Part shown: positions 27,036-37,227 of the stretch, piece by piece
How positions within the stretch are numbered: the first letter of the stretch is position 1
How the letters are laid out: every line of letters begins with the position of its first letter
Sequence record: OZ346219.1
DNA length: 64,000 nt
DNA from: a phage
Strand: one strand, 5' to 3'
Program-made: the position numbers and the translations under genes
Notes under the pieces: model-generated
The model's input: only the letters and a program-made list of their open reading frames with translations
Told to the model about the DNA's origin: nothing
The model's database searches: none

Positions 27036-27515
27036 TGCTAAATCATTGCAATATTTTAGTGCCTTAGTTTGAAACTCTGCGCTGTTAAGTTCTTCATAAC
27101 GGTCATAATCACCGTTTAATGCTGCCTTTCTTGCTTCTTGCTCTATCTGCATGTCAGACATGATAATACAGCGATCCCGTGCTTTCATCTTCTCAAGTTG
27201 TATAGACTCTTCTTTCTGCTTGCGCAATTCTTCTTGACGCTTCTTTTCTTCTTGTGCTTTCTCTTCCCGCGCTTCTTTGATTGCATCCTTGAACATCTGC
27301 GTTTGTGGTGCTAAACCAACTTTAACCCGATCTACGTCTCGACGTTCCATTTTAGAAATAAAGCATGATTCGATCTGTTTATCACTTGCATATGATGCTT
27401 TACATTCACGAAGCAAGAAAACCGGATCTGATTTAGCATTCATCATAGCTTCCATGTTGGTACAACCAGTAAGCATGAATGCAGCCGCAAGACCAATCAG
27501 TTTAATCATTTTCAT
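27030..27515 (-). CDS. putative lipoprotein
   Basis: 161 aa; signal peptide with lipobox LTGC; charged coiled-coil region. Confidence 0.6.
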   Translation of the reverse strand: MKMIKLIGLAAAFMLTGCTNMEAMMNAKSDPVFLLRECKASYASDKQIESCFISKMERRDVDRVKVGLAPQTQMFKDAIKEAREEKAQEEKKRQEELRKQKEESIQLEKMKARDRCIIMSDMQIEQEARKAALNGDYDRYEELNSAEFQTKALKYCNDLAK

Positions 27516-28336
27516 TTAGTCACCTCACCGAAAATTGTAAATTGTCTACGATTCTCATCGCCGAAAGATTCTACTACGTCGTTTACCTTTACGCAAGTCC
27601 CGCGCGGTAAAATTACTTCACATTCGCAAGGATTCCATGCAATTGACCCAACAACAAAACCTTTATGATCTTTTACTTCAATTACCCATGATACATTACA
27701 AGAATGTTGCATCTTTCCGGTCATTGATTCATATCGATTCTCACAATAAAGGCTAGTGCTGTTTGATAGCCATCCTCCAAAGATGATTGGTGTCATGCTG
27801 GTTGACACAAAGTTTTTAAAGGTAAATTCCTTATCTTCAATAATACGCTCTATTGTCTGAATGTCAAGATGTTGACCGCGATAAAGAGTACAGTTTAACT
27901 TTTCGGTTTTATCCATGACACAATCCATCAAATCAACAATCTCTGATATCTCATTGGTCATGTCTTCTTCCCCTAAGAGAGCACCATTTACCCATTCGTA
28001 TTGTTCAGACACATAATCACAGATTGCATTATATTCTGCTGGGGTTATGTTGTTATGTTTGTAATGTTTGAATACATTATCTCCAAAGTCTTCGGAGTGT
28101 ACTTCATACATCACATTAATGATTTTCTTGACAAATCCATAATCTTGTGTCTCTCGCTCAAGGAAGCGGATAACCTTCACATAATCATCAAAGTTAATCT
28201 GATCGCTGATCATCTCAGTGATCATGTAGCCATTAATCCCCTCAATGTCATATGTTTCGATGTAATTATCCATACGTTCCATCATTGATTCGCGTGATTC
28301 TTCTGAAAGACGAAAATCCTGTAATTGTTTGAACAT
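27512..28336 (-). CDS. ADP-ribosyltransferase, short Alt/Mod-like paralog
   Basis: 274 aa; R-S-ExE motifs (LYRGQ, VSTSMTP, ECEVILPRG) shared with adjacent alt. Confidence 0.75.
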   Translation of the reverse strand: MFKQLQDFRLSEESRESMMERMDNYIETYDIEGINGYMITEMISDQINFDDYVKVIRFLERETQDYGFVKKIINVMYEVHSEDFGDNVFKHYKHNNITPAEYNAICDYVSEQYEWVNGALLGEEDMTNEISEIVDLMDCVMDKTEKLNCTLYRGQHLDIQTIERIIEDKEFTFKNFVSTSMTPIIFGGWLSNSTSLYCENRYESMTGKMQHSCNVSWVIEVKDHKGFVVGSIAWNPCECEVILPRGTCVKVNDVVESFGDENRRQFTIFGEVTK

Positions 28337-28414: not shown

Positions 28415-30466
28415 TTACATTTTAAATTTATCCGGCATTGCGTCTACAGATACCAGATCAGCGATAAGCTGACGTAGAGTTGCCTTATCTGCTTTCTTAC
28501 GTTCGGTTTTAGCTTCGCTAATGAAGCTGGAGAAAGACAGGTCAGAAGCAGGTTTAACAACACCTTCACGGATGAATGCATCACCGTCCGCGATCATCTC
28601 GCCAGATTCTTGTAATGCTGCCAGTTCATTTTTGTTCATAATATGTGCCTCAATGTAATAAGTTTCTTGTGAATCCGTCGATGCAGTAGCACGAGTTACC
28701 GTATCAAAGGATAACACAACACCGCGAGGAAGTAAAATCTCGCATTCTTTGTAAGCAAATGCTTTGTTACCTACTGGCAAGACAGGGATGTTTTCCGCGC
28801 CAGCAATGGAGAAAGCAACATTAGCGCCACCTTCACCGCGAGAGCCAGCCATAGAATCAACACCAGCAACGGCACTAGCCACGTTTGCATTCCAGCCGCC
28901 AAAAATGTTAGGTGCAAGGGAAGTGCTCACATAGTTTTTAAAGTAAAACGCTTTTTGCTTACGTGCAGTTTCCCACATTTGCGACCGGAAGTCCATACCA
29001 CGATACAGAATAGTACCAGGATCAAGTTTAACGCCATAGTTAGAGAAGGCATTATCCAGTGCATCGCACATCTTGACCAGTTCTTCTGGATCTGCGATTC
29101 CTTCAAACTCTTCCAGCTTACGGTCGGTTAGGAAGTTGTTCATGTTGATGTATGCTGCATCGGCATATTCGCTCAACACAAAACCTTCCGCGCCCGGCAG
29201 ATCAAGATCAATATCTGCCATCATTTCACCCATGTTGCTAGCAATTGCTTCAAACATACCGGAAGCAACATTACGTAGGGCATCGGTTTTAATCTGGGTG
29301 ATATGACTACGCAGCATTTCAGCTTTTACATCTGCTGGCATAGACTGGTCTACTCGATCCATTGCCAGAGCGGTGATCTTGTTTTCGAATACTTCCTCGC
29401 TCATGATTTCTTTTAAGCGTTTGATTGATGCTGCGATAACTTCCGCAGACAACGGATCATATTGATCCTGAACTTTTACCAGTTCGCTTACTGCGTATTT
29501 TGCATCGGCTTCGCTTTCAAAAATAGTACGCATGAAACCATAGCGAGTGATAATATCACTTGTCCAGTCATTCAGAGAACGAGCGGTTGAACGTTCTAAT
29601 GCTTGACGATCAATCAGAGTATTAAACTGTTTCTTAGGTTCGGCTTCGGTGATATCTTCTTCTGGTTTAAGATTAATTTTTTCTGGATGATTCACGTAGT
29701 CGCTGTTATATGTCGCTTGAGTTTTCAGCATTTCTTCTTTAGTCAAACGAGATTTAGCCGCTACGCGTTGTTCTGCTTCCGCGTTTCGTTCTTCTTCTGA
29801 CACAAGACTAGCCGCATATGCCTCATCTTTAGTCAGAGATTCACCCGTAGCCTTAGATACCCAGCGATCACCTAAATCACTTTCTACTTTAGTGAACAAG
29901 GATTCATCAAGTTTAATACCTTTAATCTTATCAATCGCCATCCCGCGACGCTTGACAACAACTAAAGCGATCTTTTTGCTGGTCATTACTTCCTGCTGGA
30001 ATACTTCAAACTTCGGTGTACGACGCACCAAACGCTCTATAACGCGCTTAACCAGTTCGGTCTTACCTTTCATGCGGGATACGTTAAAACGGAACATAAC
30101 AGCGTCTAATTGCGCTTTACGGGCTGTTTCCATAACCACATCAAAAGCACTTGCCATAACTGCAATCGGGTTATCGCCTAGACCATTTTTAAGCTGTACA
30201 ATACGACCGCTTTTGTTCATTTCGCACAGTACAACATGTGCGGTCTTGTCACCCATACGAATGATTTTAGGTGTTTTGTTGGTGAAGTTACAAAGACGGA
30301 CAATCACATCTTTATCGCGTGTCTGTACTGCAAAAAGCTGTTTAGGATTCTGCTTAGGCTTTAAGCACTGTACCGGAGCAATACTACCAAAGTTTTCTTC
30401 CTCTTCCGTCAACAGCCATTTCTCGAAAGATTCAATCATTAGATCGTCGATTTCTAAGTTAAACAT
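28415..30466 (-). CDS. alt: Alt ADP-ribosyltransferase (head-packaged)
   Basis: 683 aa; LFTKVES.LGD, ILYRGMD, FYFKNYVSTSLAPNIFGGW, ECEILLPRG as in T4 Alt. Confidence 0.88.
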   Translation of the reverse strand: MFNLEIDDLMIESFEKWLLTEEEENFGSIAPVQCLKPKQNPKQLFAVQTRDKDVIVRLCNFTNKTPKIIRMGDKTAHVVLCEMNKSGRIVQLKNGLGDNPIAVMASAFDVVMETARKAQLDAVMFRFNVSRMKGKTELVKRVIERLVRRTPKFEVFQQEVMTSKKIALVVVKRRGMAIDKIKGIKLDESLFTKVESDLGDRWVSKATGESLTKDEAYAASLVSEEERNAEAEQRVAAKSRLTKEEMLKTQATYNSDYVNHPEKINLKPEEDITEAEPKKQFNTLIDRQALERSTARSLNDWTSDIITRYGFMRTIFESEADAKYAVSELVKVQDQYDPLSAEVIAASIKRLKEIMSEEVFENKITALAMDRVDQSMPADVKAEMLRSHITQIKTDALRNVASGMFEAIASNMGEMMADIDLDLPGAEGFVLSEYADAAYINMNNFLTDRKLEEFEGIADPEELVKMCDALDNAFSNYGVKLDPGTILYRGMDFRSQMWETARKQKAFYFKNYVSTSLAPNIFGGWNANVASAVAGVDSMAGSRGEGGANVAFSIAGAENIPVLPVGNKAFAYKECEILLPRGVVLSFDTVTRATASTDSQETYYIEAHIMNKNELAALQESGEMIADGDAFIREGVVKPASDLSFSSFISEAKTERKKADKATLRQLIADLVSVDAMPDKFKM

Positions 30467-30746: not shown

Positions 30747-30782
30747 TTGATACTCCTTAGTAGTTCGTTTCGGTATGGGTGT

Positions 30783-30811
30783 ATTATGATATACACCATC
30801 TGTTATGTCAA
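30783..30811 (-). promoter_or_regulatory. sigma70-like early promoter cassette with stem-loop (PeSL-like)
   Basis: on - strand TTGACA-N17-CATAAT; 37 nt upstream of ORF start. Confidence 0.6.
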
Positions 30812-30817
30812 CAACTT

Positions 30818-30997
30818 TTAGAACATTTTTGAAATTAATTCTGCTTTGATTTCGCAGAGAACATCTAAAGATTTCTCGTCACCCGCTTTTGCTGCTTCTG
30901 CTTGCATTTTTGAAATGGCTTCAATGTCAGTGCAATTATAAGCCGCTTGAACTTTAGCGATTGCGATGATTGCCGATTCGATGGTTAAGTGTTTCAT
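30818..30997 (-). CDS. small hypothetical protein (59 aa)
   Basis: RBS ggaga in conserved leader; below track size cut-off. Confidence 0.4.
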   Translation of the reverse strand: MKHLTIESAIIAIAKVQAAYNCTDIEAISKMQAEAAKAGDEKSLDVLCEIKAELISKMF

Positions 30998-31029
30998 GTT
31001 TGATTCTCCTTTCGTTTCGGTATGTGTGC

Positions 31030-31059
31030 ATTATGGGGGATCACCGATCCCCCTGTCAA
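31030..31059 (-). promoter_or_regulatory. sigma70-like early promoter cassette with stem-loop (PeSL-like)
   Basis: TTGACA-N18-CATAAT on - strand; stem-loop gggggatcaccgatccccc. Confidence 0.6.
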
Positions 31060-31066
31060 CAATTTT

Positions 31067-31585
31067 TTAGTTATTTTTTAATTGCTCATCTTGCAATAGG
31101 GCAATCACATGCTGGCGATGTTCTTCCGATTGAGGCACACCGAAAAAGTTTGTTTTGTAGAAATACTCTAATCGGTCTTCTCGTGTGCTCTCTTCCATCA
31201 TGATCGCGGGTAGTCCGAGATTTCGGAAACGTCGCTTTTCTGCTGGCGTAAAATCACTGTAATACAACATAGAATCATCATTACCAGCAATGCTAAACTC
31301 ATCCTTCATAAAGGAGAATATTGCGTTTAAACGCTGTTTACCGTCCACGATTTCGATCTCATAGCGAGAGCCATCATCAATCTTAGCCATTGCGATAGCA
31401 CCAACCGGAAAATCATTAATAAGGTTTTCGATAAACATACGTTTGTTTTCGGTGTCCCATACTAAAGGACGCTGATAATCTGGGTTCATGCTGATATAGC
31501 CATCTTCTAACCATGCATCATAAACAGAGATGACAAAGTTTTTAGTATTGGTATAGTAACGGCGTTTAGGCGTTAAACGGTTCAT
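31067..31585 (-). CDS. DUF262 / ParB-like domain protein (stand-alone)
   Basis: start at MNRLTPKRR (RBS aggaga); motifs DYQRPLVW and IVDGKQRLNAI typical of DUF262/ParB N-terminal domain. Confidence 0.6.
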   Translation of the reverse strand: MNRLTPKRRYYTNTKNFVISVYDAWLEDGYISMNPDYQRPLVWDTENKRMFIENLINDFPVGAIAMAKIDDGSRYEIEIVDGKQRLNAIFSFMKDEFSIAGNDDSMLYYSDFTPAEKRRFRNLGLPAIMMEESTREDRLEYFYKTNFFGVPQSEEHRQHVIALLQDEQLKNN

Positions 31586-31586
31586 G

Positions 31587-31919
31587 TTATAGTCTCCTGA
31601 ATGGATCATCACGTAAATCAATATCTTTTAAGAACTCATCCCATGAATGCCGGATATTGTTCTTAATTCTCCAGATAAGCGCAGGGATTGAACGCTCTCC
31701 CATCTGGAAGTAGGGATCATATGATCCGTATGCCCAATATGCTACTACAATTCCACAATCAGCGCAATAGTATTCTATTTCACTGGCTGGCGACCAAAGT
31801 CCATCAATATGATCGGTGATCTTGCTTTCGATGTTATGGCTATGACAATCAGGGCAACGGATGCAATGACCTTGTTTATCGTAATTTGACGTTAGCGAAT
31901 ACTTAAACAATCTCATCAT
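31587..31919 (-). CDS. zinc-finger protein (CxxC...CxxC)
   Basis: 110 aa; CIRCPDCHSH ... CADCG. Confidence 0.5.
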   Translation of the reverse strand: MMRLFKYSLTSNYDKQGHCIRCPDCHSHNIESKITDHIDGLWSPASEIEYYCADCGIVVAYWAYGSYDPYFQMGERSIPALIWRIKNNIRHSWDEFLKDIDLRDDPFRRL

Positions 31920-32632
31920 AGATCCTTATTTGCTTCAAATACTGCCTTTGCGAATCCTCGCGGGGTAAGTGACCTGATAGTCTTTGTTTTCGTTCCTTTC
32001 CCGCCTAGCTTAGAATGCTGTTTACTGTACCCTTTATTAATCTGCAACGGTTTCTTTTCTGGCATTATAAAGCCTTGTCCGGTCCATAAGCAAGTCTTTT
32101 TCGGGTACATATCACGGGCGGCGATATACTCAGGAAAAGTAGGATGTTTATCATCTTCCGGCAAATAACCGCCATATTCCCACGGGTGGAACATGTAATC
32201 AGGCTTACGCCACATGCTAGAGATAACGCTTACAGGATTCTCTATCATGTAGGGAACTCCTAGCCATTCACCCAAATAAGCGGTTATTTTAGCTGCCCTT
32301 ACATCATGAACTTGAATCAATGGTCCTTGTTCTCGTTTCTTTCGTTCAAAGTGTGCAGCGCCACTAACAGCTAAATTGGTGCACGGTGGGAATGCAAAGA
32401 TAATATCCGGTTTCCCCCATTCAAGGTCCATTGCTCTTTCCAGCCAGTTCAAATCAATCCAGGTGTTTACATAGGTAATGTTTGGATGTTCAAATCTGGT
32501 ATTATACTTTTTGTATGTGCCGTGGTCGCCATCATCAGCATTAAAGCAGATCACCTTATGACCTGCTTTAGCCCATTCTAGCCCCATTATCCCCGATCCG
32601 TCAAAGTTACAGAATATTAATTTTTGTTTCAT
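31916..32632 (-). CDS. C5-methyltransferase-like protein (putative)
   Basis: 238 aa; FCNFDGSG (motif I-like), FAFPPCTNLAVSGA (PC motif IV-like), YMIENPV (ENV motif VI-like). Confidence 0.5.
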   Translation of the reverse strand: MKQKLIFCNFDGSGIMGLEWAKAGHKVICFNADDGDHGTYKKYNTRFEHPNITYVNTWIDLNWLERAMDLEWGKPDIIFAFPPCTNLAVSGAAHFERKKREQGPLIQVHDVRAAKITAYLGEWLGVPYMIENPVSVISSMWRKPDYMFHPWEYGGYLPEDDKHPTFPEYIAARDMYPKKTCLWTGQGFIMPEKKPLQINKGYSKQHSKLGGKGTKTKTIRSLTPRGFAKAVFEANKDL

Positions 32633-32874
32633 ATACGCCCCTTTAATCCAACACAGATTTTAGAAGGTTCTTTGCCGTGCCACATTAAGTAAAGTCCGTT
32701 AATGCGGCCTTGTTTTGTATATGATTCTTTTCTGATCTTCTTATAGTGTCGTGTTTCCTCAACTGATTGTTTAGAATACCAATCATAAAGGAAGAGGCAC
32801 AAAGGCCAACCATTAGCGGCCTTTGTGCAGTTATTAAGAAATTCCTTATTGCGTTTAATTAATTTTCTTTTCAC
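32629..32874 (-). CDS. hypothetical protein (81 aa)
   Basis: ATGA overlaps with neighbours. Confidence 0.5.
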   Translation of the reverse strand: MKRKLIKRNKEFLNNCTKAANGWPLCLFLYDWYSKQSVEETRHYKKIRKESYTKQGRINGLYLMWHGKEPSKICVGLKGRI

Positions 32875-33152: not shown

Positions 33153-33181
33153 TGATGGTTGTATTGTAGGGGAGTTATCCT
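33153..33181 (-). promoter_or_regulatory. sigma70-like early promoter cassette with stem-loop (PeSL-like)
   Basis: TTGACA-N17-TACAAT; stem-loop ggggagttatcctcccc. Confidence 0.6.
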
Positions 33182-33205
33182 CCCCTGTCAACACTTTTTA
33201 TAAAA

Positions 33206-33373
33206 TTATTTGTTAATTTCCGGTGCGTTGCTCGGATAGTAACCTTCTTTAACACCCAGATATTTTGCAACCATCCCTACAATCTTCTGTGCTACTACAA
33301 TGTCAAATTTCAGATAATCTTCGCCGTGGGTTTCAATGATATATGCTTCACATGCTGCTTTAGTCTCGAACAT
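33206..33373 (-). CDS. small protein (55 aa), copy A of duplicated gene
   Basis: MFETKAACEAYIIETHGEDYLKFDIVVAQKIVGMVAKYLGVKEGYYPSNAPEINK; paralog at 36492-36659. Confidence 0.5.
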   Translation of the reverse strand: MFETKAACEAYIIETHGEDYLKFDIVVAQKIVGMVAKYLGVKEGYYPSNAPEINK

Positions 33374-33407
33374 TTTGATTCTCCTATTTCGTTTCGTTAT
33401 GTGTGTA

Positions 33408-33436
33408 TTATAGGGGATCTCCCGATCCCCGTCAAC
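33408..33436 (-). promoter_or_regulatory. sigma70-like early promoter cassette with stem-loop (PeSL-like)
   Basis: TTGACG-N17-TATAAT; stem-loop ggggatctcccgatcccc. Confidence 0.6.
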
Positions 33437-33449
33437 AACTTTTTTAAAA

Positions 33450-34201: not shown

Positions 34202-34507
34202 TTAGACAAAATAATCATTCAGTGCAATCCGGTCGGCGTATGCTGGTGTTACGTCAATCGCAATCACTTTAACGCGTGCTTTCTTGCGACCTGGGTTTTC
34301 TCGTAACCAGTGCTCATGACCGTGAACATTTTTATACTTTGATGCTTCTTCAAATGTACGGATCGGACCTGGATAATCTGCGTAAAGGATCTCTAGGTCT
34401 TCGGTGATGTAAAAATATACATCATAATTACTGTTCTCTAGTTTAAGCAGAGACTTTCGGAACATTGGGAGATTTTCGCGGGTAAATTCAAAGATATTAT
34501 CTTTCAT
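34202..34507 (-). CDS. small protein, HxHW paralog family member
   Basis: 101 aa; HGHEHWL...RVKVIAIDV. Confidence 0.55.
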   Translation of the reverse strand: MKDNIFEFTRENLPMFRKSLLKLENSNYDVYFYITEDLEILYADYPGPIRTFEEASKYKNVHGHEHWLRENPGRKKARVKVIAIDVTPAYADRIALNDYFV

Positions 34508-34929: not shown

Positions 34930-35208
34930 TTATAAAATAATTTTTTGATATTTTTCTATGATGTTTGTGTAGGTCACGTCAACCGCTAGCACCGTTGCTT
35001 CGAATCCACCGTTTAGCCAATGGCTATGATCATGATCGTGAAAGAAACCAAGACCAGTACGAAGACCTTCTTTATATTCGGCGCGTACATTTAGATCATC
35101 ATCGATAAACAGATAAAACCATGAATTTTTACTAGGATTGATGATACAACCTTTCAGATTAGGGAGAATATCACGACTAAGAATAAACTTATCACCTACT
35201 TTGAACAT
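34930..35208 (-). CDS. small protein, HxHW paralog family member
   Basis: HDHSHWL...ATVLAVDV; start set at MFKVGDKF with RBS (track ORF starts 35223). Confidence 0.5.
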   Translation of the reverse strand: MFKVGDKFILSRDILPNLKGCIINPSKNSWFYLFIDDDLNVRAEYKEGLRTGLGFFHDHDHSHWLNGGFEATVLAVDVTYTNIIEKYQKIIL

Positions 35209-35212
35209 AATA

Positions 35213-35533
35213 TTAGTCCTCATTTATAAGGTCAAACCAATTGTTTTTCGCATAATGCTTAATGCGTGCTTGATCTGCTTCCGCTGGTGATAGATTCCAT
35301 GCAACCACTACAACTTCTGACGCATCGTCATCCGTTTCTGATACCCAATGATTGTGATTCATACAGTTATTTGCGATCGAGTGAGCAAATGATTTCATCA
35401 CTGGAGACGTATAATCATAGTAACGGATTTTCAGATTTTCATCAACGTACAAATAGATCGTATAAGGTTTATATTCAGTAACCAGTAACAGACAGTTACG
35501 CAATTCTGGGAAAATCTTTTTAGTTAATTTCAT
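35213..35533 (-). CDS. small protein, HxHW paralog family member
   Basis: MNHNHWV...EVVVVAW; start set at MKLTKKIF with RBS gagg (track ORF starts 35614). Confidence 0.5.
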   Translation of the reverse strand: MKLTKKIFPELRNCLLLVTEYKPYTIYLYVDENLKIRYYDYTSPVMKSFAHSIANNCMNHNHWVSETDDDASEVVVVAWNLSPAEADQARIKHYAKNNWFDLINED

Positions 35534-35534
35534 T

Positions 35535-35753
35535 TTATAATCCTCGGTCGCGGCTATAGTACACGGTACGCCATACAATTTCATGTTTCGTGTCGCTCCA
35601 GCACACGATCTCATTTACTCTTAAATCTTTGTTATCAACAAAAGATGAACATTGTGACGCTTCTTTCATCATTTTATCTGCTGTTTTCTCATCAAATACA
35701 GCACAGATTTCTTTATACACTCGATAATCTTTGAATTGACTCTGAATACCCAT
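35535..35753 (-). CDS. small protein, tandem paralog B
   Basis: FKDYRVYKEICAVFDEKTADKMMKEASQCSSF aligns with upstream paralog. Confidence 0.45.
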   Translation of the reverse strand: MGIQSQFKDYRVYKEICAVFDEKTADKMMKEASQCSSFVDNKDLRVNEIVCWSDTKHEIVWRTVYYSRDRGL

Positions 35754-35976
35754 AATTAACACCATTCCAACCAATTGTTTTTGAGAAAACGTTTATCCAC
35801 TGTTGAGTGTAACATGTTTCTTTCCATGATACAATACGAGTAGAATAATGGTTTTTGTTTCCAGAAAAGGACGGGCATTTTGATGCATCTTCCATCATCT
35901 TTTCGGCGAACTCTGGTGCGTATACTCGCAGGATCTGTTGATATGCTTTGTATTCTTTAAATTTGCTCATAATCAT
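35713..35976 (-). CDS. small protein, tandem paralog A
   Basis: FKEYKAYQQILRVYAPEFAEKMMEDASKCPSF. Confidence 0.45.
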   Translation of the reverse strand: MIMSKFKEYKAYQQILRVYAPEFAEKMMEDASKCPSFSGNKNHYSTRIVSWKETCYTQQWINVFSKTIGWNGVNYGYSESIQRLSSV

Positions 35977-36235
35977 TCACTACCTTATCAGCTTCTTTTG
36001 TTGTTTTTACATCAACTGCGATAACTCGTAAAGGTTCGTCATGGTTCCACCAGTGGTCATGAATATCAGCTTGTGATTTATCACCAAAGGAATCACGAAT
36101 ATCATTTTTACATTTATAGCTAATGTGACCTTCATAGTCAACATAAAGGTAATTATCGAAAATCGGCGTTTTTAAGATCATACCGAAAAATCTTTCTTTG
36201 TGTGTCTTATCCAGCGTTGCAGTAATTCGCATCAT
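35957..36235 (-). CDS. small protein, HxHW paralog family member
   Basis: IHDHWWN...LRVIAVDV; RBS agagga. Confidence 0.55.
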   Translation of the reverse strand: MMRITATLDKTHKERFFGMILKTPIFDNYLYVDYEGHISYKCKNDIRDSFGDKSQADIHDHWWNHDEPLRVIAVDVKTTKEADKVVNDYEQI

Positions 36236-36491: not shown

Positions 36492-36659
36492 TTATTTGTT
36501 AATTTCCGGTGCGTTGCTCGGATAGTAACCTTCTTTAACACCCAGATATTTTGCAACCATTCCGGTGATCTTCTGTGCTACTACGATATCGAATTTCAGG
36601 TAGTCTTCACCGTGGTTTGCTACAATGTATGCTTCGCATTCTGCTTTAGTCTGGAACAT
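36492..36659 (-). CDS. small protein (55 aa), copy B of duplicated gene
   Basis: MFQTKAECEAYIVANHGEDYLKFDIVVAQKITGMVAKYLGVKEGYYPSNAPEINK. Confidence 0.5.
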   Translation of the reverse strand: MFQTKAECEAYIVANHGEDYLKFDIVVAQKITGMVAKYLGVKEGYYPSNAPEINK

Positions 36660-36725: not shown

Positions 36726-37019
36726 TTATAATGCTTTATATGCGTATTTCATAAATTTGTCTGCCACTTCATTGGCATGTTCAGATTCTACGCCTGATTC
36801 TAGAACAATAGCTAGGTCGGTTTCGTCATTCCCGCCGTACCAATGATTTGATGTTCGATTTTTTTCAATTGGAAATTGGTCACTTTTATCTGTGCGACAA
36901 AATACATCTAAATGCTCGTCGATGTAAAAGATCCAATCTTCATAAAGAATAACGGTATTAGCCAGATTTTTATTGCCTTCAACGAAAGGTTCGGCTACAA
37001 ACAAATTAGTATGTTCCAT
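36726..37019 (-). CDS. small protein, HxHW paralog family member
   Basis: SNHWYGG...LAIVLESGV; start set at MEHTNLF with RBS gagga (track ORF starts 37076). Confidence 0.45.
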   Translation of the reverse strand: MEHTNLFVAEPFVEGNKNLANTVILYEDWIFYIDEHLDVFCRTDKSDQFPIEKNRTSNHWYGGNDETDLAIVLESGVESEHANEVADKFMKYAYKAL

Positions 37020-37035
37020 AGTATTTTCCTCAAAA

Positions 37036-37227
37036 TTATACAGCTTCGTAAACTTCCCAATGTCCAACACCAGCACGCTTAACGAAAAGGTTTTCTTTTA
37101 TGTTATTCATAAACGTCTGGATGGATTTAATGCGGTTTGAAGGTTTCCATTCTTCGTTGGCATTGCGTCGATACATCATAACATTACCAGTTCGCTTATA
37201 TTCAGCAACCATTTTAAGACCACACAT
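37036..37227 (-). CDS. hypothetical protein (63 aa)
   Basis: ORF only. Confidence 0.35.
   Translation of the reverse strand: MCGLKMVAEYKRTGNVMMYRRNANEEWKPSNRIKSIQTFMNNIKENLFVKRAGVGHWEVYEAV

Follow-up and report, generated by a model that had tools for sequence, protein, structure and literature searches.

A short 'Dcm-like' protein of a Krischvirus is probably an orphan DNA cytosine-C5 methyltransferase from a widespread phage family

The 64,000-nt stretch of phage DNA analysed here (sequence record OZ346219.1; hereafter the window) carries on its minus strand a gene for a 238-aa protein (Table 1) which very likely is an active, stand-alone ('orphan') S-adenosylmethionine (SAM)-dependent DNA cytosine-C5 methyltransferase belonging to the short phage 'Dcm-like' family. 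A first-pass annotation of the window had already described this open reading frame (ORF) and had proposed that it might encode a cytosine-C5 methyltransferase acting on DNA or RNA, or a related pyrimidine-modifying enzyme. The ORF is indeed present as described, and its reading as a cytosine-C5 DNA methyltransferase is supported by the predicted fold, by the conservation of the Pro-Cys and ENx motifs and by a 55%-identical homologue that forms 5-methylcytosine (5mC). The gene is not new, since its family is already known and annotated and has been characterised in part. The present analysis established the fold class, the conservation of the motifs, the family to which the protein belongs and the layout of the operon, while the activity of the window protein, its recognition sequence and its biological role are what we infer.

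The best-studied relative is the Dcm protein of K42, a KarlJaspers/Bas06-like phage of the Drexlerviridae. Phages escaping the retron Ec86 were found to have a disrupted 711-bp dcm gene, and expression of K42 Dcm was toxic solely when the retron was present. Residues C82, E128, K175 and K176, the last two termed substrate-binding, were chosen with the help of an AlphaFold2 model superposed on DNMT3A, and the quadruple mutant was inactive; by LC-MS (liquid chromatography coupled to mass spectrometry), the 5mC content of the multicopy single-stranded DNA (msDNA) was high with K42 Dcm and low with the mutant or the empty vector (bioRxiv 10.1101/2023.08.16.553469; later Wang et al., Cell Rep 2024). 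The corresponding KarlJaspers gene (MZ501090, bas06_0055; 711 bp, 236 aa) encodes a protein 55% identical to the window protein over its full length (E 1e-91), and C84, E131, K178 and K179 of the latter align with C82, E128, K175 and K176 of K42 Dcm. The two proteins have in common their family, architecture, catalytic Cys/Glu/Lys-Lys set and DNMT3A-like predicted fold, and each is encoded by an orphan early or accessory gene of a lytic coliphage. They differ in the type of phage, a T4-like myovirus (Krischvirus) in the case of the window and a Drexlerviridae siphovirus in that of KarlJaspers, and in that the window gene is co-transcribed with genes for zinc-ribbon and DUF262 proteins, which accompany no methyltransferase gene in KarlJaspers. 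Judged by its sequence, the window protein is therefore a full-length member of a family in which DNA C5-methyltransferase activity has been demonstrated, namely for the K42 homologue.

Conservation was followed in two alignments, a close one of 46 homologues of the window methyltransferase and a wide one of 116 sequences, made up of the window protein and 115 representatives that are 29-54% identical to it. The three stretches on which the first-pass annotation had rested are found in the translation at residues 7-14 (FCNFDGSG), 79-92 (FAFPPCTNLAVSGA) and 128-134 (YMIENPV), and the codons of FDGSG, PPCT and ENP were verified in the raw sequence. Among the close homologues, F10, G12, S13 and G14 of motif I, P82, P83, C84 and T85 of motif IV and E131, N132 and P133 of motif VI are all invariant. 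Motif I is more variable in the wider family, where the predicted nucleophile position is a cysteine in 108 of the 116 sequences and the position of E131 a glutamate in 113, N132 and P133 being conserved as well. K178 and T180 are retained in 107 and 105 of these sequences, respectively, and belong to a set of residues whose conservation is specific to the family (K99, R142, P150, D174, Y176, K178, T180, W183, P191, R220, T223, P224 and G226).

Assignment of the more C-terminal motifs (VIII, IX and X) is putative. K178-K179-T180 may stand in for the RxR of canonical motif VIII, and R142 is another conserved candidate for the role of the motif VIII arginine. The Lys/Arg-rich block from L209 to G226, which is invariant or nearly so in the close alignment, probably makes DNA contacts and provides a closing helix resembling motifs IX and X. 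The first-pass annotation had judged the protein too short for a full target-recognition domain (TRD), and this holds: approximately 35 residues (186-219) separate the motif-VIII-like strand from the C-terminal block. Residues 186-206 may contribute to specificity. The clearly variable loop, at about residues 195-207, is of a GYSxQ type in the window protein, where it reads GYSKQHS, and of an NPGW type in K42 and KarlJaspers, the KarlJaspers enzyme having DNPGWA, so that the specificity of the window enzyme may differ from theirs. By pattern match, 120 close homologues included 67 GYSxQ loops, 18 NPGW loops and 28 unclassified ones, the printed examples of which are GYSxQ(Y/F)-like. A weaker variant of the 'modify and shield' scenario described below supposes an ultra-short enzyme with an unusual recognition mode set by this GYSxQ/NPGW loop of 6-8 residues.

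An AlphaFold2 model built from the 46-sequence alignment reached a mean predicted local distance difference test (pLDDT) score of 91.3 and a predicted template modelling (pTM) score of 0.89; pLDDT falls to 75-82 near residues 201-220, and helices were modelled at 214-220 and 225-235. The model displays a class I Rossmann-like SAM-methyltransferase fold with the topology of C5-methyltransferases. The Rossmann SAM-binding site, whose absence from the predicted fold the first-pass annotation had named as grounds for giving up its proposal, is thus present in the model. When the model was compared to the PDB with Foldseek, the top 15 matches were all catalytic domains of DNMT3A or DNMT3B (E about 1e-7); in a library of viral structures (BFVD), members of the protein's own family matched best, and further cytosine methyltransferases of viruses came next. 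A separate TRD between motifs VIII and IX, typical of C5-methyltransferases and not chemically required, is absent from the model. Two uncultured-phage proteins in BFVD, A0A6J5SE15 (1397 aa) and A0A6J5NPY6 (1126 aa), contain a similar C5-methyltransferase domain together with helicase/UvrB-type regions.

The window protein matches the PHROGs family phrog_757, 'DNA methyltransferase', over residues 1-237 (E 2e-90). Homologues form 7,310 clusters at 90% identity; at 50% identity, 1,995 representatives were retrieved with E <= 0.001 and 190 with E <= 1e-30. Nearly all full-length representatives measure 210-260 aa, a range in which the single-domain window protein falls. Of 50,697 phage records searched with tblastn, 1,495 contained the family, among them those of Drexlerviridae, Dhillonvirus, Vequintavirinae, Phapecoctavirus and Klebsiella Webervirus, which is the distribution of an orphan single gene spread across many phage taxa. 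In the BASEL collection the family is labelled 'Dcm-like C5 cytosine methyltransferase'. One metagenomic member (P0258, 563 aa) carries a fused Dam DNA methyltransferase of the D12 class, and Pfam scans of nine other long members revealed no informative fusion partner beyond this one.

The window itself originates from a Krischvirus (RB49-like): the region is 97.6-99.6% identical to the listed members of the genus, with phage kvi as the best match (99.6%), and the methyltransferase is 100% identical to the product of a kvi gene labelled 'Dcm'. The gene is kept in 64 Krischvirus records. It is labelled 'DNA methyltransferase' in the RB49 RefSeq and GEC-3S records, 'Hypothetical C-5 cytosine DNA methylase' in that of TB34, and 'hypothetical protein' in some others. 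Comparison with the TB34 copy showed 12 synonymous and three non-synonymous codon differences, indicating that the gene is under purifying selection. Its retention within the genus, this codon pattern and the more than 7,300 homologous clusters all indicate that the ORF is real and not a product of chance.

Compared with better known C5 enzymes, the window protein is compact. It is 13-17% identical to the DNMT3A and DNMT3B catalytic domains, is about 50 residues shorter and lacks the regulatory domains; the K-K-T of the window protein presumably occupies the position of the DNMT3 RxR. Canonical Type II enzymes (M.HhaI, M.HaeIII, M.MpeI) exceed it by approximately 90-150 residues and possess a separate small domain or TRD and a cognate restriction enzyme, neither of which accompanies the window protein. 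With E. coli Dcm and M.EcoRII it has in common C5 chemistry, the 'Dcm' label and possibly the CCWGG target. The Dcm of the E. coli host is 472 aa long, about double the size of the window protein, and alignment of the 46-homologue profile to E. coli K-12 Dcm with hhalign covered 24 columns around motif IV, with a probability of 0.2%; no homology extending through the target-recognition domain was found in this profile alignment. Since only motif IV aligns, the 'Dcm' label denotes analogy and not orthology.

Drawing on what is known of C5-methyltransferases, we propose the following course of events. A promoter of the host type would drive early transcription of a tightly packed unit of five genes, of which this gene is the third. 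SAM would be held by motif I (F10-x-G-S-G14), N31 and D60, and the target cytosine would flip out of the double helix. The thiolate of Cys84 in the PPC motif would then attack C6 while Glu131 of the ENP motif engages N3/N4, the methyl group would be transferred to C5, and beta-elimination would free the enzyme. In place of a separate TRD there are only short conserved insertions, at residues 149-179 and at the Lys/Arg-rich 186-224, a trait in which the enzyme is like the compact DNMT3 catalytic domain. A few specific sites would be methylated after replication on phage DNA and probably on host DNA as well. The most likely purpose would be to blunt a Type II restriction enzyme, and the cost could be that methylation is sensed by the retron Ec86/Eco1.

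Several observations weigh against this interpretation. The match to the C5-methyltransferase family PF00145 reaches 14.4 bits, short of the 22-bit cutoff, and is confined to residues 10-100; among the relatives, 21 of 46 match it at E <= 0.1, the best at 1.3e-6. A sequence search of the PDB and a profile search with the 46 sequences returned no match even at E <= 10, and no NCBIfam model matched the protein. In the clade of the window protein, the canonical RxR of motif VIII appears to be replaced by K-K-T, and the acidic residue of motif II is replaced by N31. Where strand 2 ends, C5-methyltransferases usually have a ribose-binding acidic residue; this site, position 31, is Asp in the wider family and Asn in the clade to which the window protein and the active K42 enzyme both belong. 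Bulk DNA data set a further constraint. RB49 DNA grown on E. coli B was cut by HpaII and NheI, both of them sensitive to methylation (PMC4041780, Fig. S1), and modified nucleosides were undetectable by high-performance liquid chromatography-mass spectrometry (HPLC-MS) in TB34 grown on DH5alpha (PMC13390438); the TB34 methyltransferase differs from the window copy at three residues. These results are compatible only with sparse sites and rule out dense methylation, so that any methylation must be sparse and site-specific. Non-specific methylation as a consequence of the missing TRD was rejected on the same grounds, RB49 DNA from the dcm- E. coli B being cut by both enzymes and no bulk modification being seen in TB34. 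Furthermore, the three-fold depletion of CCWGG in the window fits poorly with reliable protection of this site, and in the BASEL collection no simple relation was seen between these methyltransferase genes and resistance to restriction. We regard an active orphan methyltransferase as the best account of the gene.

What such an enzyme would recognise is a separate question. A narrower form of the proposed explanation holds that it is a CCWGG enzyme of the E. coli Dcm/EcoRII type, by which those CCWGG sites that the phage still has would be protected against restriction of the EcoRII kind; we consider this possible rather than probable. The family is widely labelled 'Dcm', and K42 Dcm needs the CCTGG of the Ec86 msDNA stem-loop to trigger defence. 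The window holds 21 CCWGG sites, for example at 32459 and 34290, where about 70 would be expected (ratio 0.30); methylation of all 21 would amount to 0.16% of cytosines, a quantity which HPLC with ultraviolet detection (HPLC-UV) would easily miss and which agrees with both the TB34 HPLC result and the cutting of RB49 DNA by HpaII and NheI. However, the strong avoidance which this ratio reflects is what an unprotected site would be expected to show, no sequence similarity to E. coli Dcm extends beyond motif IV, and the GYSxQ loop of the window protein differs from the NPGW loop of K42 and KarlJaspers. MG1655, the host in which the retron experiment with K42 Dcm was carried out, is dcm+. Its own enzyme should therefore pre-methylate CCWGG, yet the control msDNA was low in 5mC and the retron was not auto-activated: if the phage enzyme merely copied the host Dcm, the retron should already fire in this strain. 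The CCWGG specificity of K42 Dcm was in fact taken from E. coli Dcm by analogy and not mapped, the sole support being that altering CCTGG in the msDNA abolished defence (bioRxiv 10.1101/2023.08.16.553469). For the window enzyme, CCWGG is a guess.

Site-avoidance statistics could not be used to identify the target, as they revealed a broad avoidance of palindromes in which CCWGG is included. GAATTC, AAGCTT, GGATCC, TCCGGA, CCGCGG, ACCGGT and AGCGCT are all absent from the window, where 10-24 of each would be expected; CAGCTG occurs once, CCSGG and GGCC reach about 0.3 of the number expected, and GATC is not depleted. This pattern fits a phage with essentially unmodified DNA, whose main means of escaping Type II restriction is the loss of sites. 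Direct methylome data on this methyltransferase family were not found in the literature.

Table 1. Coordinates of the methyltransferase gene, its motifs and the neighbouring features within the window
Feature	Position	Strand	Basis
Short 'Dcm-like' C5-cytosine DNA methyltransferase gene, 238 aa	31916..32632	minus	ATG start, ORF list
Motif I, F10-D-G-S-G14, SAM-binding loop	32591..32605	minus	sequence; Pfam PF00145 match residues 10-100
Motif IV, P82-P-C84-T85, Cys84 the predicted catalytic nucleophile	32378..32389	minus	sequence, alignments
Motif VI, E131-N-P133, ENV-type, Glu predicted to contact the target cytosine	32234..32242	minus	sequence, alignments
K178-K179-T180, start of last core strand, putative position of canonical motif VIII RxR	32093..32101	minus	alignments
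C-terminal conserved block L209-G-G-K...T-K-x-I-R-S-L-T-P-R-G226, Lys/Arg-rich	31955..32008	minus	alignment
Residues 186-206, sole clearly variable segment, candidate minimal specificity loop	32015..32077	minus	close-homologue alignment
First gene of the unit, 83 aa	32871..33122	minus	phrog_14908 E 5e-59
Upstream 81-aa ORF, GTG start, ATGA-coupled to the methyltransferase gene	32629..32874	minus	phrog_7065 E 1e-37, unknown function
Zinc-ribbon protein of 110 aa (CxxC...CxxC), downstream of the methyltransferase gene and ATGA-coupled to it	31587..31919	minus	Zn_Ribbon_TF E 5.6e-4, phrog_2993 E 5e-34
DUF262/GmrSD N-terminal-domain-only protein, 172 aa, last gene of the unit	31067..31585	minus	PF03235 E 7.8e-20
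Sigma-70-like early promoter, TTGACA-17-TACAAT	33163..33191	minus	consensus scan, 11/12 matches
Next sigma-70-like promoter, TTGACA-18-CATAAT, downstream of the DUF262 gene, marking the end of the unit	31030..31059	minus	consensus scan

Two sigma-70-like promoters bracket a unit of five genes, encoding in order the 83-aa protein, the 81-aa protein, the methyltransferase, the zinc-ribbon protein and the DUF262 protein. The promoter scan is a consensus match alone, and its regional total equals that of shuffled sequence, so that it is not functional evidence by itself. The match of the 110-aa protein to Zn_Ribbon_TF lies below the Pfam cutoff, and the DUF262 protein is devoid of the DUF1524 nuclease half. 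The first-pass annotation had the methyltransferase gene coupled through ATGA overlaps to the genes of the zinc-finger and DUF262 proteins. Such overlaps do exist with the upstream 81-aa ORF (32629..32632) and with the zinc-ribbon ORF (31916..31919); the junction between the zinc-ribbon and DUF262 genes is instead TAA-C-ATG, with a 1-nt spacer and an AGGAG Shine-Dalgarno sequence within the end of the zinc-ribbon gene. The TTG at 31621, given as the DUF262 start in the program-made ORF list, was rejected in favour of the ATG at 31585.

The promoter downstream of the DUF262 gene lies in one of several repeated intergenic elements of about 80 bp, located at about 30985-31066, with similar ones near 33160-33200, 33400-33440 and 30780-30815. 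In them, TTGACA occurs with a stem-loop rich in GC (GGGGGATC...GATCCCCC), with a -10 box of the CATAAT type and with a Shine-Dalgarno sequence; they resemble the promoter-early stem-loop (PeSL) cassettes of RB49.

The shared transcription unit raises the possibility that the methyltransferase of Krischviruses acts together with its neighbours. For the DUF262 protein, a role as decoy or inhibitor of the host's Type IV restriction enzymes (GmrSD/BrxU-type) is conceivable, or else one in DNA binding in the manner of ParB. One such scenario is a 'modify and shield' pair, in which sparse 5mC would be combined with a DUF262 protein serving as a decoy for host Type IV enzymes of the GmrSD/BrxU type, by which 5mC-containing DNA is cleaved, or inhibiting them in a dominant-negative manner; we hold it to be quite unlikely. 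Very unlikely, in our view, is a complex in which the zinc-ribbon protein and the DUF262 (ParB/GmrSD-N-like) protein would supply DNA targeting to the methyltransferase. The three genes are indeed tied into one transcription unit by start/stop overlap or 1-nt spacing, the enzyme has no normal target-recognition domain, and phage DNA methyltransferases often have ParB-type domains fused to them or encoded beside them. However, neither partner goes with the methyltransferase in SSE121, in KarlJaspers or in four metagenomic phage contigs, the K42 enzyme was active when expressed alone, and overlapping starts and stops are usual in this gene-dense early region. Homologues consisting of DUF262 only, 35-38% identical, are encoded by RB43, KP27, Matisse, Miller and other T4-like phages without hydroxymethylcytosine (hmC), and at the RB43 and KP27 loci neither a methyltransferase nor a zinc-ribbon gene stands alongside.

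The functional link to the zinc-finger and DUF262 proteins implied by the first-pass annotation found no support in the comparison. Neither these two genes nor the 81-aa ORF lie beside the methyltransferase gene in the Salmonella phage SSE121, in KarlJaspers or in the four metagenomic contigs, all of them unrelated loci, and a functional module comprising all of them is unsupported by these six methyltransferase loci and the two DUF262 loci. Given that the neighbours are separate in other phages, the coupling is better seen as a feature of the dense Krischvirus early region than as evidence of a shared function; as neighbours of the methyltransferase gene, the zinc-ribbon and DUF262 genes are specific to Krischvirus and not obligate.

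We hold it highly improbable that the orphan methyltransferase transfers something other than a methyl group, for example a carboxymethyl group from carboxy-SAM (Cx-SAM) in the manner of CmoX, or that it performs the first step of a cytosine hypermodification, perhaps that of phage SAP. CmoX (PDB 8yf3; PMC12783734) is a phage DNA cytosine C5-carboxymethyltransferase of 333 aa, with a signature residue, Arg350, for the carboxylate of Cx-SAM. Its SPPC motif resembles the PPC motif of the present family (FPPC in the window protein), and Cx-SAM is described as being made by E. coli for tRNA modification. CmoX co-occurs with a phage CmoA and a ligase, whereas the characterised homologue of the window protein makes 5mC, as identified by LC-MS. 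At the column of Asn235 in the wide alignment, the commonest residues are Asn (78), Tyr (10), Leu (5) and Met (5), and Arg is not common; the equivalence of this position to CmoX R350 or HhaI N304 is itself unestablished. No Pfam-recognisable TET/JBP, glycosyltransferase or CmoA gene adjoins the methyltransferase gene at four Pfam-annotated loci, where many neighbours are without a Pfam match, and no Pfam-recognisable CmoA or amide ligase was seen at these loci or among the scanned operon partners in the window. The cleavage of RB49 DNA by HpaII and NheI likewise argues against such a modification.

Phage SAP is reported to be 99.96% identical to TB34 and to have its cytosines fully modified, as 5-hydroxymethylcytosine (5hmC) / glucosyl-5hmC, by an unknown pathway (2026 Applied and Environmental Microbiology paper, PMC13390438). 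The two phages encode one and the same methyltransferase protein, and within the 3.7 kb surrounding the gene the two genomes differ by a tandem duplication of about 80 bp and four small indels, without a single substitution. The duplicated SAP element is the promoter/stem-loop just downstream of the DUF262 gene (positions 1500-1660 of the SAP sequence compared); as a result of one of the indels, the annotated zinc-ribbon gene measures 333 nt, as opposed to 330 nt in TB34. With identical proteins in the modified SAP and the unmodified TB34, the methyltransferase was rejected as the cause of the hypermodification and the gene drops off the list of candidates for it.

The least probable of the alternatives, an RNA (tRNA or rRNA) m5C methyltransferase akin to DNMT2, is contradicted by the scores of DNMT2, which do not rise above those of the generic Rossmann background and fall far short of that of DNMT3B (13.7), by methylation of the msDNA DNA stem-loop by the homologue, and by the fusion of one family member to a Dam DNA methyltransferase.

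Other features of the region were noted in passing. Small ORFs of 92-133 aa on the minus strand (34202-34507, 34930-35223, 35213-35614, 35957-36235 and 36726-37076) look by eye like tandem paralogues in an early hyperplastic region, and have in common a C-terminal pattern 'H-x-H-W ... V-(I/L)-A-(V/I)-D-V'. Two near-identical 55-aa ORFs, also on the minus strand and about 3.3 kb apart (33206-33373 and 36492-36659; MFETKAACEAYIIETHGEDYLKFDIVVAQKIVGMVAKYLGVKEGYYPSNAPEINK and MFQTKAECEAYIVANHGEDYLKFDIVVAQKITGMVAKYLGVKEGYYPSNAPEINK), each adjoin a promoter/stem-loop element. Two adjacent minus-strand ORFs of 274 aa (27512-28336) and 683 aa (28415-30466) share the C-terminal signature 'F(K)N(F/Y)VSTS...IFGGW...ECE(V/I)LLPRG'; since the longer one is labelled ADP-ribosyltransferase (ART) in TB34 and RB49, they are probably a pair of Alt-like ART paralogues.

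As such, the identification of this gene matters little: it is already publicly labelled Dcm or DNA methyltransferase, and its family has a characterised member. Its interest lies rather in the size of the enzymes, which at about 230 aa are some 90 residues shorter than M.HhaI (327 aa) and M.HaeIII (328 aa), and in how they would read DNA without a TRD. Krischviruses are usually seen as T4 relatives with unmodified cytosine, a view that sparse, phage-encoded 5mC would qualify. If true, such a mark predicts that these phages would be sensitive to Type IV enzymes that depend on 5mC, as well as to the retron Eco1.

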